Positions 1,142 through 40,477 of a DNA stretch of 40,477 nt are shown piece by piece. The stretch is from the sequence record NC_028863.1. One strand, 5' to 3'. The notes beneath the pieces were generated by a model. It was not told the origin of the DNA and searched no databases. It saw only the letters and a list, made by a program, of their open reading frames with translations. Position numbers and translations under genes: made by a program. Every line of letters starts with the position of its first letter. Within the stretch, counting starts at the first letter, position 1. The DNA is from Escherichia phage P694.

Positions 1142-1588
1142 ATGCTCAAGAATTTAAAGAGATACGCCATAATCGCTGCGTTTGCCTTGGGAATTACCCT
1201 TGCGTACAACCACGGCTATGACAAGGCTAACACTAAATGGGAACAGGAGGTGCACAATGAGTACGTTAAGAAAGTTGAGGCGACTGCGGATAAACAGGCT
1301 GCTCTCAATGAAGTCTCACGACAATACCAAGAAGACCTTGCGGCGCTGGAAGGCAGCACTGATAGGGTCATTAATGATTTGCGTAACGATGGTAAGCGGC
1401 TGCGCGTCAAACTATCAGCCACCTCACGAGAACTCCAAGCTAACGGTGGATGCCTCGTTGATGGTCGAGCCGAACTTGACGAAGAGTTTAGTAAGCGTCT
1501 TATCGGAGTAACTCAAAGAGGGGATGCGTGGATTCGTGCGCTCCAAGATACAATCAAAGAAATGCAAACTAAGAAGGAGGCTAAGTAA
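1142..1588 (+). CDS. 18.5: Rz-like i-spanin (T7 gp18.5-like)
   Basis: Internal ATG 1142 with GGGAGG RBS; N-terminal membrane anchor; similarity to T7 gp18.5 ([12 protein letters not shown]... motif). Confidence 0.85.
1257..1511 (+). CDS. 18.7: Rz1-like o-spanin lipoprotein, embedded in the +1 frame of gene 18.5
   Basis: ATG 1257 with GGAGG RBS; lipobox-like ...[10 protein letters not shown]; C-terminal SLMVEPNLT as in T7 gp18.7. Confidence 0.8.
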   Translation: MSTLRKLRRLRINRLLSMKSHDNTKKTLRRWKAALIGSLMICVTMVSGCASNYQPPHENSKLTVDASLMVEPNLTKSLVSVLSE

Positions 1589-3348
1589 TGTCACAATCCC
1601 AAGAAGCTAAGAATGCGTTAATCATTGCGCAACTTAAGGGTGATTTTGTTGCTTTCTTATTCGTCTTATGGAAGGCTCTGAACTTACCTAAACCAACCAA
1701 GTGTCAGATTGATATGGCACGTACACTCGCTAATGGTGACCACAAGAAGTTTATCCTTCAGGCGTTCCGTGGTATCGGCAAGTCCTTTATCACCTGTGCG
1801 TTCGTTGTGTGGGTCTTATGGCGTGATCCTCAACTTAAGGTGCTCATCGTGTCTGCCTCTAAGGAACGTGCTGACGCTAACTCCATCTTCATCAAGAACA
1901 TCATTGACCTGCTGCCATTCCTCGCTGAGTTAAAACCTCGACCGGGACAGCGTGACTCTGTGATTAGCTTCGACGTTGGCTTGGCGAAACCCGACCACTC
2001 ACCCTCTGTGAAGTCTGTGGGTATCACTGGTCAGTTAACTGGTAGCCGTGCTGACATCATCATTGCAGATGACGTTGAGGTTCCCGGCAATAGCTCTACG
2101 AGTTCGGCCCGTGAGAAGCTCTGGACGTTGGTAACTGAGTTTGCTGCGTTACTTAAGCCACTGCCTACCTCTCGTGTTATCTACCTTGGCACACCTCAAA
2201 CCGAGATGACGCTCTACAAGGAACTTGAGGATAACAAAGGGTACAGCACTGTAATCTGGCCTGCACAGTATCCACGTAATGACGCTGAGGCTCTCTACTA
2301 TGGGGACCGCTTGGCTCCGATGCTTAAGGCTGAATACGATGAAGGCTTTGAGTTACTTCGTGGTCAACCTACTGACCCTATTCGATTCGATATGGATGAC
2401 CTCCGTGAACGTGAACTCGAATATGGCAAAGCTGGCTACACGCTTCAGTTCATGCTTAACCCGAACCTTAGTGATGCCGAGAAGTACCCGCTACGACTCC
2501 GTGACGCTATCGTGTGCGCTGTGGACCCTGAACGTGCCCCATTGTCTTACCAGTGGTTGCCGAACCGTCAGAACCGCAATGAGGAACTCCCTAACGTTGG
2601 TCTGAAGGGTGATGACATCCATGCGTTCCATACGTGCTCTTCTCGTACCGCTGAGTATCAGTCTAAGATTCTGGTCATTGACCCAAGTGGTCGTGGTAAG
2701 GATGAGACCGGGTATGCAGTCCTGTACTCACTTAACGGTTATATCTACTTGATGGAAGTCGGTGGGTTCCGTGGTGGTTACGATGATGCTACCCTAGAGA
2801 AGCTCGCTAAGAAGGCCAAGCAGTGGAAGGTACAGACAGTCGTCCACGAGTCCAACTTCGGTGATGGTATGTTCGGTAAGATTTTCTCTCCGATTCTCCT
2901 GAAGCACCACAAGTGTGCCTTAGAGGAAATCCGTGCTAAAGGCATGAAGGAGGTGCGAATCTGCGATACTATCGAACCATTGATGGGTGCGCACAAGCTG
3001 GTCATTCGTGATGAGGTTATCCGTGAGGACTACCAGACTGCTCGTGACCTTGATGGGAAACATGATGTTCGCTACAGTGCGTTCTATCAGATGACCCGTA
3101 TGACCCGTGAGCGAGGCGCTGTGGCACACGATGACCGACTTGATGCTATCGCATTGGGTATCGAGTTCCTGCGTGAAGGGATGCTTGTGGACAGCCGTGT
3201 AGGTGAAGAAGAGATGACCCTTGAGTTCCTTGAACACCACATGGAGAAACAGACCATTGGTGGTGATGCTATCCATAGCTACGATGTTGGTGGCGTGGAC
3301 ATCTACTACGAGGACGATGGAGACTCTAGCTGCTTCATTGAGTGGTAA
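1588..3348 (+). CDS. 19: Terminase large subunit (DNA maturation protein B)
   Basis: 586 aa, same length as T7 gp19 with high similarity as recalled; ATG overlaps the 18.5 stop. Confidence 0.95.
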
Positions 3349-3435
3349 TAGATAAGTATGCGGGAAAGGTGCATAGGTAAGCACTTAGTACCGCTACGTT
3401 ACCGTTAAGTAACTTACTGATATACATGAAGAAAT

Positions 3436-3458
3436 TAATACGACTCACTATTGGGAAG
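3436..3458 (+). promoter_or_regulatory. Phage RNAP promoter (phiOR-like)
   Basis: TAATACGACTCACTATTGGGAAGG, one mismatch to the T7 consensus at -1. Confidence 0.8.
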
Positions 3459-3615
3459 GGCACCCTAAGACAACTTAAAGACACTTAAAGACTGCATATG
3501 CAAAGTGCATACTTAGTGACTAACTCTAAGAGACCCTTACAGTGAGGGATGATAGTAATAGTAATTACATCCCCACTATCAGTGTAACCATCAAGTATAA
3601 CAAGGAGGACGCTCT

Positions 3616-3771
3616 ATGCGCTTACTAACCGTGCTCAAGACACTGGCAACGCATCGAGTGACCTATAAATTTCTCGTTGTACTTGCTGCTTCCATTGGTC
3701 TCGCATCTAGTGCTGAACACATCGGTGAACTGGAGACTCTGCTTTGTTCTCTACTCACTTGTGTTCCTTAG
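3616..3771 (+). CDS. 19.5: gp19.5-like small protein
   Basis: 51 aa MRLLTVLKTLATHRVTYKFLVVL..., similar to T7 gp19.5 as recalled; AAGGAGG RBS. Confidence 0.75.
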   Translation: MRLLTVLKTLATHRVTYKFLVVLAASIGLASSAEHIGELETLLCSLLTCVP

Positions 3772-3859
3772 ACTGCTCATCGGCGCTTAATGCGCTCTTA
3801 GTGATTATGGTCGATATACATCTTCCCTATAATCACTGTAAGAAGTCAACTCTAAGAGT

Positions 3860-4300
3860 AACCCTTATGTACCCTCTATGGTCTACAGGGTCTCTTAGGG
3901 TCTCACCTTATGATAGAGCCTCTGTGGTTAACCTTATGAGAGACTTGATGTACCCTTTAAGAATCCTACAGAAAAATCTGAGTGGGTATCTCATAGTTCA
4001 TACACACCGAGTTCCCCCTATGGCCTCCTTCAGTCCCACCCAAAGAGTGCCACCCCTTATGATAACTTATGGTTTACTTAATGTCAATCCTTATGTGAGA
4101 CATTGGGTTAACTCTAGGTGTTACCACTAGATGTGGTGCTTAGAGTGACCTTATGACCACTATATGTAGTCCTCTCTGTGTCCCTATCTGTAATCACCTT
4201 ATGTTTCCTCTTAGAGTTAACACCTTATGTCACCTCTTATTAGCTACGCTAACCTTAATGTTACTCCTTATGGCTGCCTCTCCTTATGTTAACCTTCAGT
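3860..4300. repeat. Array of short dispersed CCTTATG-type repeats in the genome-end region
   Basis: At least 10 copies of (A/C)CCTTATG at irregular spacing (e.g. 3865, 3907, 3932, 4046, 4091, 4151, 4198, 4224, 4268, 4284); analogous to the CCTAAAG repeats at the T7 ends. Confidence 0.7.
3990..4200. repeat. Predicted location of the collapsed direct terminal repeat; physical left end near 3990 (approximate)
   Basis: TCTCATAGTTCATACACACCGAGTTCCCCCTATGG resembles the T7 left terminus TCTCACAGTGTACGGACC...TTCCCCCATAGGG; CTCTCTGTGTCCCTATCTGT (about 4175..4195) matches a T7 terminal-repeat segment. Confidence 0.35.
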
Positions 4301-4366
4301 CGGTGCCTTCAGTCTATAGACACCTATCGTTACCACTCTTAGACCAGCCTTAAAGACCATACAGCT

Positions 4367-4391
4367 AATGCGACTCACTATTGAGAATGGT
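4367..4391 (+). promoter_or_regulatory. Phage RNAP promoter variant (phiOL-like)
   Basis: TAATGCGACTCACTATTGAGAATGG; degenerate relative to the consensus seen elsewhere in the window. Confidence 0.5.
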
Positions 4392-4482
4392 TGTTTATAG
4401 TCTTATTACTATTCCCTTCCTTATAGGCTAACTTAAAGAGACTTAAAGAGACTCTGAGACTACTTAAAGTTTCAACTAGGGG

Positions 4483-4511
4483 TTGACTCTAAGAAACAGC
4501 TGTGAGACTAT
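4483..4511 (+). promoter_or_regulatory. Candidate host sigma70 early promoter (A1-like)
   Basis: TTGACT, 17-bp spacer, GACTAT; position upstream of the early genes as in T7. Confidence 0.45.
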
Positions 4512-4617
4512 AGCAACCGTTGAGAGACACAACGCTACCAACTACCAGACAAGACCGCGAGTTATCTGGTAATGCTGAAGAGTCTCAAGTAGTCATCAAC
4601 CAGACATAAGAAAGTGG

Positions 4618-4646
4618 TTGACTCAACGAAAGAAATAACGTAGTAT
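4618..4646 (+). promoter_or_regulatory. Candidate host sigma70 early promoter (A2-like)
   Basis: TTGACT, 17-bp spacer, TAGTAT. Confidence 0.55.
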
Positions 4647-4712
4647 AGCAGTCGTCAACAACTGGTCGCCCTATGAAACAACATGAGGTGTCACGGTGAC
4701 AAACAAAAGTAG

Positions 4713-4742
4713 TTGACAGGCAGTAAAGTTAAGATGTAAGAT
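4713..4742 (+). promoter_or_regulatory. Candidate host sigma70 early promoter (A3-like)
   Basis: TTGACA, 18-bp spacer, TAAGAT. Confidence 0.55.
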
Positions 4743-4860
4743 GTACGACATGCAGTAAGGGTGTAGGGATAGGAACCGAGAAACCTGCCCGTGACCCGCC
4801 AAGGATAAGGCACTAGCCGTGAGTCGAATTCGGTCACTCATCGCATAAAAGAATAACAGG

Positions 4861-4889
4861 TTGACAGTCTCCTTTAAAAACTGTAAGCT
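4861..4889 (+). promoter_or_regulatory. Candidate additional host sigma70 promoter
   Basis: TTGACA, 17-bp spacer, TAAGCT. Confidence 0.4.
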
Positions 4890-5080
4890 GTACCACATGC
4901 ACTACATAACGTTCTTGTGAGGTCACACACTGAAAGTGACTCGGTGCTAACAAACCTGCACTTAAAGTTCTTTAACAATTTGGTCGTGTAATTCCCTTAC
5001 TGCGGGACAGGTAGTCAAGAACTACGGGGATGACGTGAACGCACAAGCGTTTAACCAGTGATGACGCCGACTGATAGCGA

Positions 5081-38692: not shown

Positions 38693-40420
38693 ATGGCTCT
38701 TAAAATTCGTACCGTAATGACTTACCCGCTGAATGGCTCTACTGTGGACTTCGGTATCACGTTTGAGTATCTAGCGCGTAAGTTCGTTTCGGTGACTCTT
38801 ATTGGTAAAGACCGCAAAGAGTTGGTCTTGAATCAGGACTTCCGGTTTACCACTAAGACTCAAATCACAACCACTCGTGCGTGGAGTCCATCTGATGGAT
38901 ACACCATGATTGAGATTCGTCGTTACACCTCCGTTACCGACCGTCTGGTGGACTTTGCTGATGGTTCTATCCTCCGTGCTTATGACCTGAACATTGCTCA
39001 AATCCAGACACTTCACGTTGCTGAAGAGGCTCGTGATTTAACAGCGGATACGATTGGCGTTAACAACGATGGGAACCTAGATGCGCGTGGTCGCCGCATT
39101 GTGAACCTAGCGAATGCTGTAGAGGATGGTGATGCTATCAATCTTGGTCAGGTAAAGGGCTGGAATGAATCAGCATGGAACTCTAAGAATGAAGCGGCAA
39201 CATCTGCCAACTGGTCTGCTCGCTGGGCGCAAGGTGAAGGTGTCATCGCTGATGGTCGCTACTCTTCCCGCCAATACAACGAATGGGCGATGGCTATTCA
39301 GAAGGATGTAGAGCGTATGCGTGGCCTTGTGGCTGCTGACGCTAAGTGGGCAGATGAGTCTGTCAACAAGGCAAAGAACTCCGAGAACGCTGCTGCCGCG
39401 TCTGCTACTGCTGCTTCTGGTGATGCTCGCTGGGCTAACGAATCGGCACAGAAGGCAAAGACATCTGAGACCAACGCGAAGGCTTCCGAAGAAAGGGCAA
39501 TCCTTGAGGCGAACAAGCTGGAGAACAACAATGCACTAGCGGCCTCTATCCGTGGAATCACTGGTAACGACGTTAAGTGGAAGGGTTCTCACCAGTTTAC
39601 TAACGGTGTCTCTATTGTTCGTGCTGACAACTTAGAGCACGTTTGGCGGCAGGGCTTATGGGCTGAAGGTAATGCGCTTCACTCCGACTTTGTTACCGAG
39701 CTTCCGGGTGGAGAGTTTGGTTCTGGTGCTTTCACTCATATGCACTTCGTATATCCAGTATCAGGGGTTCCTACTCTTGACATGTACCCACACACAACGT
39801 TCAACTCCAAGGTCGTAACAAAGTCGATGATTGATTCACAGGCTAACTTCTCTGGTGCGCACTCTGACCAGTACAACGACTATGCCCCACTGTGGCAACA
39901 GGTTCGTGCTTCGAGTGGTAATGAGTTCTTCCCGTTAATCAAACAGCGTTCCTATCAGGCTGGGGCTGATGCTCGCTCTTGGACTATGGGTATTCTATTG
40001 GATAACAACAGAATCGCGCAGTGGAACCTACTGACGACTAACGAGGGAGGTGTTGCAAATGCGTCCTATACGTGGACTCGTGATGGGGACTTTAATGCTC
40101 CTCGTCAGGTAGTCTCTGGCTCTTTCAGAACACATGGTGGTAGTGTATTAGGTGGCGATGGTAACATCACAGGCAGTGCATTCGGGCCTCAGAACAACAT
40201 TGCGGATTGGATTCGTGCCAACTTCCCCGGTGACATCTGGCTCGCCAACCCTGAGTGGTATCCCCACAATGGTAGCTATCAAGAACTTACTGTAGGCTCC
40301 GGTCACGTATGTACTGGTATCGTTCTGAACACTGGTGGCGTGTGCTCTGGTATGCAACACCGGGGTATGTGGATTGGGTATCACAACGGCGCGCAACGTC
40401 AGGTTGCCTCTATTGGATAA
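38693..40420 (+). CDS. 17: Tail fibre protein with conserved N-terminal tail-attachment domain and divergent C-terminal receptor-binding region
   Basis: 575 aa; residues 1 to about 150 closely match T7 gp17 (FEYLARKFV.VTLIG.DRK, RLVDFADGSILRAYDLN.AQIQT.HVAEEARDLT.DTIGVNNDG.LDARGRRIVNLANAV); the C-terminal half does not match T7 as I recall it. Confidence 0.93.
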   Translation: MALKIRTVMTYPLNGSTVDFGITFEYLARKFVSVTLIGKDRKELVLNQDFRFTTKTQITTTRAWSPSDGYTMIEIRRYTSVTDRLVDFADGSILRAYDLNIAQIQTLHVAEEARDLTADTIGVNNDGNLDARGRRIVNLANAVEDGDAINLGQVKGWNESAWNSKNEAATSANWSARWAQGEGVIADGRYSSRQYNEWAMAIQKDVERMRGLVAADAKWADESVNKAKNSENAAAASATAASGDARWANESAQKAKTSETNAKASEERAILEANKLENNNALAASIRGITGNDVKWKGSHQFTNGVSIVRADNLEHVWRQGLWAEGNALHSDFVTELPGGEFGSGAFTHMHFVYPVSGVPTLDMYPHTTFNSKVVTKSMIDSQANFSGAHSDQYNDYAPLWQQVRASSGNEFFPLIKQRSYQAGADARSWTMGILLDNNRIAQWNLLTTNEGGVANASYTWTRDGDFNAPRQVVSGSFRTHGGSVLGGDGNITGSAFGPQNNIADWIRANFPGDIWLANPEWYPHNGSYQELTVGSGHVCTGIVLNTGGVCSGMQHRGMWIGYHNGAQRQVASIG

Positions 40421-40432
40421 GGAGACATTATT

Positions 40433-40477
40433 ATGAAGATTTACAAAGGATGGAAGTACACTGTGGTTACTGATAAG
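40433..40477 (+). CDS. 5' end of the 125-aa post-fibre ORF (duplicate of 185..229; truncated by the window end)
   Basis: Identical to 185..229. Confidence 0.6.
   Translation, partial: MKIYKGWKYTVVTDK

Follow-up and report, generated by a model that had tools for sequence, protein, structure and literature searches.

Terminal repeats of roughly 150-250 bp are a feature of the T7 group, and the exact repeats computed from deposited records measure 160 bp in T7, 231 bp in T3 and 194 bp in both the Escherichia phage BA14 (EU734171) and the Kluyvera phage Kvp1 (FJ194439), two members of the genus Berlinvirus. All four genomes display AAAAATCTGA[A/G]TG..TA immediately before the right-hand copy of the repeat, followed by TCTCA, the first bases of the genome, and in all four the repeat ends in GTGTCCCT and is succeeded by ATCTGT. 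In the Kvp1 record, both boundaries are shifted to the right by one base (start CTCATAG, end GTGTCCC). An intermediate in the processing of T7 concatemers was reportedly described by Chung, Nardone and Hinkle (in J Mol Biol, 1990), with a hairpin end at an inverted repeat located to the left of the junction; the same authors are said to have proposed that this hairpin end primes duplication of the repeat. Transcription is also involved at such junctions. RNA polymerase pausing at the junction has a role in packaging (PMC3276506; bioRxiv 10.1101/2021.01.11.426313), and the paused polymerase is said to interact with gp18 and gp19 and thereby to start maturation (PMC3276506). The class II core that provokes the pause, ATCTGTT, is strictly conserved and preceded by A, C or T (bioRxiv 10.1101/2021.01.11.426313; 10.64898/2026.02.12.705533), and all seven of its bases are reported to be strictly required for pausing or termination by T7 RNA polymerase (same two sources).

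The DNA analysed here (the window, 40,477 nucleotides in all) is a circularised assembly opened at an arbitrary point, with a unit genome of 40,248 bp. Among GenBank phages, megablast searches with positions 3300-5000 and 5000-29000 matched only T7-group podoviruses, namely Berlinvirus and its neighbours, and the nearest whole-genome records (pO103, Shigella phage A7, P483, PZJ0206 and D226) share about 92% identity over about 90% of the 24 kb compared. Judging from these matches, the phage is a Berlinvirus-like member of the Studiervirinae within the T7 group. Positions 3772-4365 very probably (a probability of about 0.92) represent its concatemer junction, with a 197-bp terminal repeat at 3989-4185; in the circular assembly, the shared repeat would join the right end of one genome unit to the left end of the following one. 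The junction has the textbook architecture of the T7 group, including conserved synteny, a left cut motif, a right cut motif and flanking heptamers on one strand, and each of its features recurs in BA14 and Kvp1.

The surrounding genes and promoters follow the T7 order: gene 19, phiOR, gene 19.5, junction, phiOL and host-type early promoters. Gene 19 (1588-3348, plus strand) is a 586-aa open reading frame whose megablast-matched features are annotated 'terminase large subunit' or 'DNA packaging protein B', and by analogy its product is taken to be the enzyme that cuts at the junction. A phiOR-like phage RNA polymerase promoter, TAATACGACTCACTATTGGGAAG, lies on the plus strand at 3436-3458. It is one of eight matches to the phage promoter consensus with at most three mismatches (none expected by chance), and it occupies the same relative place, between genes 19 and 19.5, as the annotated phiOR of BA14 and the annotated promoter of Kvp1. 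Transcription from this promoter would run rightward through the junction. Gene 19.5 (3616-3771, plus strand), the last gene of the genome, encodes 51 amino acids, matches phrog_2193 over its full length (E 6e-24) and is annotated in the same position in BA14 and Kvp1, which share the gene order. On the far side of the junction, the phiOL-like promoter TAATGCGACTCACTATTGAGAAT (4366-4388, plus strand) is a 23-mer with four mismatches to the consensus, weaker than the match at 3436-3458, and aligns with the phiOL annotated in BA14 at 353-375. The T7 junction occupies the same genome position and is likewise flanked by phiOR and phiOL. T7 also has a leftward A0-type promoter, for which the window offers a candidate inside the repeat: a sigma-70-like sequence on the minus strand (4087-4059, TTGACA-17-TATCAT) that agrees with 11 of 12 consensus positions and is predicted from this consensus match. 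It resembles the 'A0 (leftward)' promoter, which is annotated inside the repeat in the T3 record and at nt 224, just right of the 160-bp repeat, in the T7 record. Between 3300 and 5200, no intrinsic terminator is predicted, including after gene 19.5, and a permissive E-value search of the same segment against Rfam gave no match.

The boundaries of the repeat were set by alignment to T7, T3, BA14 and Kvp1, whose ends are either annotated or coincide with the ends of the deposited linear record. On the left, the window reads AAAAATCTGAGTGGGTA|TCTCATAGTT at 3972-3998. The cut motif itself, AAAAATCTGAGTGGGTA|TCTCA (3972-3993, plus strand), corresponds to the conserved left-end cut sequence AAAATCTGARTGNNTA|TCTCA and would place the cut at 3988|3989, and virion DNA would then begin with TCTCATAG at 3989, after AAAAATCTGAGTGGGTA. 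This motif is identical in BA14 (where the boundary reads …TCTGAGTGGGTA|TCTCATAGTTCATACA, as here) and near-identical in Kvp1, T7 and T3; in T7, TCTCA also opens the left end and is preceded by AAAAATCTGAGTG, and the left end TCTCATAGTTCA is common to T3 and the present phage. A segment resembling the T7 left terminus had been predicted from about 3990, and TCTCATAGTT does start at 3989, in the form found in T3 and BA14, where T7 has TCTCACAGTG. On the right, the window reads CTCTCTGTGTCCCT|ATCTGTAATC at 4172-4195, identical to BA14 across the cut (…CTCTCTGTGTCCCT|ATCTGTAAT). The inferred cut at 4185|4186 can be written CTCTCTGTGTCCCT|ATCTGTA or CTCTGTGTCCCT|ATCTGT and is close in sequence to those of T7 and T3. 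Here the repeat ends in GTGTCCCT, and the right-end cut sequence ...GTGTCCCT|ATCTGT... found at 4178-4191 is also that of T3. The 20-mer CTCTCTGTGTCCCTATCTGT at 4172-4191 is identical to T7 at 20 of 20 nucleotides and coincides with the T7 repeat-like block anticipated near 4180.

Delimited in this way, the direct terminal repeat (3989-4185, plus strand) shares 185 of its 197 positions with Kvp1, 175 with BA14, about 61% with T7 and about 63% with T3. It occurs once in the window, and because a single copy stands in a circularised contig the repeat is considered to be collapsed; its length and single occurrence in a circular assembly fit a T7-group repeat. The differences from BA14 and Kvp1 include this collapse by assembly, a repeat of 197 rather than 194 bp, and a 21-nt and other small indels. 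The repeat is longer than that of T7 and shorter than that of T3. Deposited records of relatives point independently to the same two positions. In the megablast comparison, the BA14 record, in which the terminal repeat and a 'concatemeric junction' are annotated, begins at window position 3989, and the records of FE44, Kvp1, LPST144 and PYPS50, among others, end at 4184-4186. An exact-pattern scan of IMG/VR found the left-cut motif in 33 contigs, and about two-thirds of these loci stop some 130-235 bp beyond TCTCA, at a distance of roughly one repeat length. The original prediction, that the genome ends and one copy of an approximately 200-bp direct repeat lie in this stretch, thus agrees with the BA14 start, the ends of other records, the boundary motifs and the similarity found on alignment to the T7 ends; physical ends at these positions are therefore supported by homology.

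The repeat separates two unique non-coding segments, and all three parts contain the heptamer CCTTATG. The right-end segment (3772-3988, plus strand), counterpart of the T7 'SRL', carries a hairpin-capable inverted repeat and three copies of the heptamer (3863, 3906 and 3932); three exact copies lie within the repeat (4055, 4089 and 4149); and the left-end segment (4186-4365, plus strand), counterpart of the T7 'SRR', holds four (4197, 4223, 4266 and 4282) in addition to two copies of CCTTCAG. The array of at least ten short repeats that had been noticed thus amounts to exactly ten perfect copies, all on the plus strand, which are dispersed at intervals of 16-123 bp and are not arranged head to tail: Tandem Repeats Finder reported no CCTTATG array, its only result being ACTTAAAGAG repeated 2.3 times at 4431-4453. 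The enrichment is marked. The remaining ~40 kb contain only eight further copies, both strands included; when the whole window was shuffled, the copy number averaged 3.7 and never exceeded 8, against the 18 observed. According to the shuffle mean, about 0.05 copies would be expected in a stretch of this size, against ten seen on one strand. When one mismatch is allowed, the region has 12 occurrences on the plus strand and none on the minus strand, or 20 per kb as against 2.1 per kb elsewhere.

Equivalent arrays are found when the commonest 7-mer is counted in the reconstructed junctions of other phages. CCTAAAG occurs 13 times in T7 and nine times in T3, CCTTATG nine times in BA14 and seven times in Kvp1, CTATCAG 11 times in the Pectobacterium phage Jarilo (L017) and CCTTTGG seven times in the locus L021. 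A heptamer array on one strand around the repeat is therefore a trait of the whole group with a lineage-specific unit, and CCTTATG is the counterpart in this lineage of the CCTAAAG arrays that flank the repeat in T7 and T3. The number of heptamer-type repeats varies between close relatives, as described for the fPS phages of Yersinia (PMC5923468). Such variation also shows in the right-hand heptamer region of the present junction, where an indel at about 4238-4258 makes the window ~21 nt longer than BA14 and Kvp1. As to function, one guess is that the heptamers act as repeated contact sites of low specificity for the packaging machinery.

Directly after the right cut, the window carries ATCTGTA (4186-4192, plus strand), which matches the T7 class II core at six of seven positions. 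In its full context the sequence is T-ATCTGTA and departs by its last base, A, from the strict form, ATCTGTT preceded by A, C or T. The same variant is found throughout the genus: BA14 annotates CTATCTGT as 'concatemeric junction', and six of six other Berlinvirus junctions (BA14, Kvp1, D226 and the IMG/VR loci L018, L037 and L042) read ATCTGTAA. In contrast, all 12 T7-like, T3-like and Jarilo junctions read ATCTGTT. Fixation of the variant in Berlinvirus suggests a functional signal that may be tuned to the polymerase of this genus. The polymerase of this phage may or may not pause here, because the T7 enzyme reportedly needs every base of the core and the last one differs.

By analogy with T7 and T3, replication of the phage would generate head-to-tail concatemers in which successive genomes are joined through the repeat. 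RNA polymerase arriving from phiOR or from late promoters further upstream would pause at ATCTGT just past the repeat and would help to recruit the gp18/gp19 terminase-prohead complex. Terminase would then cut at the two conserved sites, 3988|3989 and 4185|4186, and the repeat would have to be duplicated so that neither of the neighbouring genomes is lost. One route proposed for this duplication is a snap-back hairpin that primes copying, for which the candidate in the present phage would be the inverted repeat at 3800-3837.

This inverted repeat, AGTGATTAT-(20 nt)-ATAATCACT, has arms at 3800-3808 and 3829-3837 that are complementary at nine of nine positions. It begins 29 nt past the gene 19.5 stop, extends imperfectly to 3796-3843 and is centred ~170 bp left of the start of the terminal repeat. 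A hairpin-capable element with a loop of ~27 nt had been announced at about 3800-3845; the arms are indeed present, and the loop measures 20 nt. No other perfect inverted repeat with arms of at least 9 bp and a loop of 3-40 nt exists in the 40,248-bp unit genome. The element thus provides what the T7 hairpin intermediate calls for, an inverted repeat able to snap back within the unique right-end segment. T7 itself has a positional counterpart at nt ~39568-39608, an inverted repeat that could form an imperfect hairpin and lies ~170-210 bp to the left of its terminal repeat. In T7 and T3, which has the T7 form at the same place, it is a two-tier stem, AGGGAT...ATCCCT around GGTATGAT/ATCACACC; the arms read GGGAT..ATCCC in T7 and GTGAT..ATCAC here. 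The hairpin with its 20-nt loop is common to BA14 and Kvp1, as are the CCTTATG heptamers and the ATCTGTA variant.

Other lineages have their own versions. To the left of the repeat, Jarilo carries CCTTAAGGGA/TCCCTTAAGG, which encloses a further stem of 8 bp, Yersinia phage AP10 carries CTTTAAGTG/CACTTAAAG, Pectobacterium phage DU_PP_II carries CCTTAAGGTC/GACCTTAAGG, and the loci L028 and L035 carry TAAGGGT/ACCCTTA; the loops are somewhat longer in AP10 and Jarilo. These counterparts are unrelated in sequence and share one location, between 130 and 230 bp to the left of where the repeat starts; for the 9-10-bp arms of Jarilo, AP10 and DU_PP_II, the distance is 130-200 bp. They were compared by position within each lineage and without a covariance model, because the cross-genus MAFFT alignment left the hairpin arms out of register. 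Since only ~0.02 perfect 9-bp inverted repeats with a loop of at most 40 nt are expected per 150 nt, the presence of perfect arms of 9-10 bp at the same place in four lineages is not due to chance. A second, imperfect inverted repeat, ACTCTAAGAG...CTCTTAGGGT (3849-3901), is complementary at nine of ten positions around a 33-nt loop that contains one CCTTATG, and relatives keep its arms with a differing loop. Taken alone it is weak evidence, because chance often produces 7-bp arms separated by long loops.

Somewhat short of even odds, the element at 3800-3837 may act not as an extruded or snap-back DNA hairpin but as a palindromic site recognized in duplex DNA by a dimeric protein (for instance a pac-type recognition site for the terminase small subunit) or as an RNA stem-loop that protects or processes the 3′ end of the gene 19.5 transcript. 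Variation within Berlinvirus bears on this choice. Nine of 12 homologous IMG/VR loci share the TTAT/ATAA of the window arms, and the other three, together with the GenBank record of D226, carry AGTGATAAT/ATTATCACT (TAAT/ATTA). The change is double-sided, with no sequence among the 12 loci and D226 altered on one side only, and this compensatory change may reflect one single evolutionary event. It preserves palindromic symmetry and would be kept equally by a dimeric protein binding the palindrome in duplex DNA. Within Berlinvirus, the 20-nt loop hardly varies and is conserved no less strongly than the arms, which points to some recognition of sequence in addition to pairing. The predicted stability is unremarkable as well: the DNA hairpin is estimated at -7.4 kcal/mol, a value equalled or exceeded in 17% of 72 random 150-nt pieces of the same genome, and stability was therefore dropped as support for a hairpin. 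Folding z-scores of the selected segments range from -1.5 to -6.3 (-4.1 for the window hairpin) and are inflated because the segments were selected as best local folds. An RNA role would suit the location of the element, 29 nt downstream of gene 19.5 and transcribed from phiOR, but the stem is not followed by a T-run and is thus not an intrinsic terminator, and it matches no Rfam family. Moreover, across genera the sequence changes wholly while an inverted repeat stays at the same distance, a persistence for which structure, or a binding protein evolving alongside, would account more readily than a fixed sequence motif. A hairpin-priming role for 3800-3837 is given even odds or a little less. 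The end of the D226 record at the first base of the inverted repeat was also considered as a physical end and rejected, since it corresponds to ~110 bp of overlapping assembly ends.

As originally proposed, about 600 bp (594 bp, 3772-4365) without a conserved reading frame separate the gene 19.5 stop (3771) from the phiOL-like promoter, and the open frames called by program at 3744-4130 and 4153-4353 are not conserved; a coding reading of both was rejected. It is very improbable that the first of these (128 aa) is a real gene. Its residues 1-66 match phrog_24929 (E 2e-41), and BA14 annotates a 105-aa CDS of 'unknown product' in the same place, but the similarity does not extend beyond residue 66 of 128, is accounted for by conserved DNA that is read in one and the same frame, and concerns an ORF that the annotators of Kvp1 left uncalled. 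Among 12 close relatives, the frame that crosses the hairpin stays open for 34 to 133 codons and stops at differing points, 22-319 nt past the start of the hairpin loop, and the alignment of the window with BA14 and Kvp1 contains indels of 1 and 2 nt. Since close relatives interrupt the frame at differing points, phrog_24929 probably consists of spurious calls made across conserved junction DNA.

The window also begins and ends with 229 identical bases (1-229 = 40249-40477). That these contig ends are the true genome ends, the 229-bp direct repeat being biological and 3772-4365 merely an internal intergenic region, is highly improbable. The length of this exact repeat would suit the T7 group, where terminal repeats range from 160 to 242 bp, but it lacks any conserved T7-group end motif, and the annotated ends of relatives map to window positions 3989 and 4185. 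It also covers the 3′-terminal part of one ORF (575 aa, judged gp17 (tail fibre)-like by its N-terminus and its place in the genome) and the first part of the next (125 aa). The contig-end repeat is an assembly artefact. Virion DNA inferred from the homologous boundaries would instead start at 3989 and end at 4185, with a length of 40,248 + 197 = 40,445 bp.

The main value of this analysis is practical, in that it sets the probable true start (3989), end (4185) and length (40,445 bp) of the linear genome. Completeness tools based on terminal repeats would mistake the 229-bp contig-end repeat for the biological one, and phrog_24929 is flagged as an ORF family of probably spurious calls. Two comparative points bear on the duplication of terminal repeats in T7-type phages: the heptamer and the hairpin keep their position but differ in sequence from lineage to lineage, and in Berlinvirus the pause core of the T7 polymerase is changed by one base. 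As a tentative and rather unlikely extension, the inverted repeat may be an element divergent in sequence and conserved in structure (a snap-back primer or nick site) that co-evolves with the packaging proteins in the T7-like, T3-like, Berlinvirus, Jarilo, AP10 and DU_PP_II lineages, and the shift of the pause signal from ATCTGTT to ATCTGTA may accompany a change in the class II specificity of the polymerase. If both hold, natural covariation across the subfamily would allow a direct approach to the way in which the repeat is duplicated during T7-type packaging, a mechanism still unsettled.

The junction signal at 4186-4192, immediately to the right of the terminal repeat (3989-4185), reads ATCTGTA, as against ATCTGTT for the class II core of T7. 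The ATCTGTA form is present in all six of the other Berlinvirus junctions examined, whereas the final T is found in each of the 12 T7-like, T3-like and Jarilo junctions examined. The terminal repeat itself contains a strong sigma-70-like promoter on the minus strand (4059-4087; TTGACA-17-TATCAT, 11/12 consensus positions), directed leftward; this predicted element resembles the promoters that the T7 and T3 records label ‘A0 (leftward)’.

The interval between the first hairpin (3800-3837) and the terminal repeat holds another inverted repeat, this one imperfect (ACTCTAAGAG...CTCTTAGGGT, 3849-3901), with a loop of 33 nt. Taken on its own it is statistically weak. Its arms are retained in relatives with a different loop, and 7-bp inverted repeats are located at a similar distance in T7 (AGGTATA/TATACCT) and in T3 (CCCTGTA/TACAGGG).

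Length variation is typical of the heptamer region located to the right of the terminal repeat. In the MAFFT alignment, this region carries a 21-nt indel (4238-4258) that leaves BA14 and Kvp1 ∼21 nt shorter than the window. Measured from start to start, the CCTTATG heptamers flanking the terminal repeat (3863-4288) lie at spacings of 43 and 26 on the left and 26, 43 and 16 on the right, a mirror-like arrangement (43-26 / 26-43) that may be a coincidence. A short way downstream of the phiOL-like promoter, ACTTAAAGAG is repeated 2.3 times in tandem and followed by a third ACTTAAAG (4431-4469), resembling the ACTTAAAGAG motifs that follow phiOL in T7.

A mechanically called ORF of 128 aa (3744-4130) extends across the junction; its residues 1-66 match phrog_24929 (E 2e-41), and a similar CDS is annotated in BA14. 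Since its reading frame is not kept in close relatives, phrog_24929 probably consists of spurious ORF calls over conserved non-coding DNA.

The GenBank record of Escherichia phage vB_Eco_D226 (MN080711.1; loci L048 and L049) starts precisely where the hairpin inverted repeat starts, and ∼110 bp are redundant between its two ends; a circular assembly seems to have been submitted untrimmed, under the label of a linear ‘complete genome’. The two ends of the window share an exact direct repeat of 229 bp (1-229 and 40249-40477), which covers the 3′ terminus of an ORF of 575 aa, judged to be gp17-like, together with the beginning of the ORF that follows. An ORF of 125 aa (185-562) separates the gp17-like ORF from the presumed holin gene (575-781); T7 itself is not known to have a gene at the equivalent position. 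The 229-bp repeat is an overlap from circular assembly and not the biological terminal repeat, and completeness tools that rely on direct terminal repeats would misread it.
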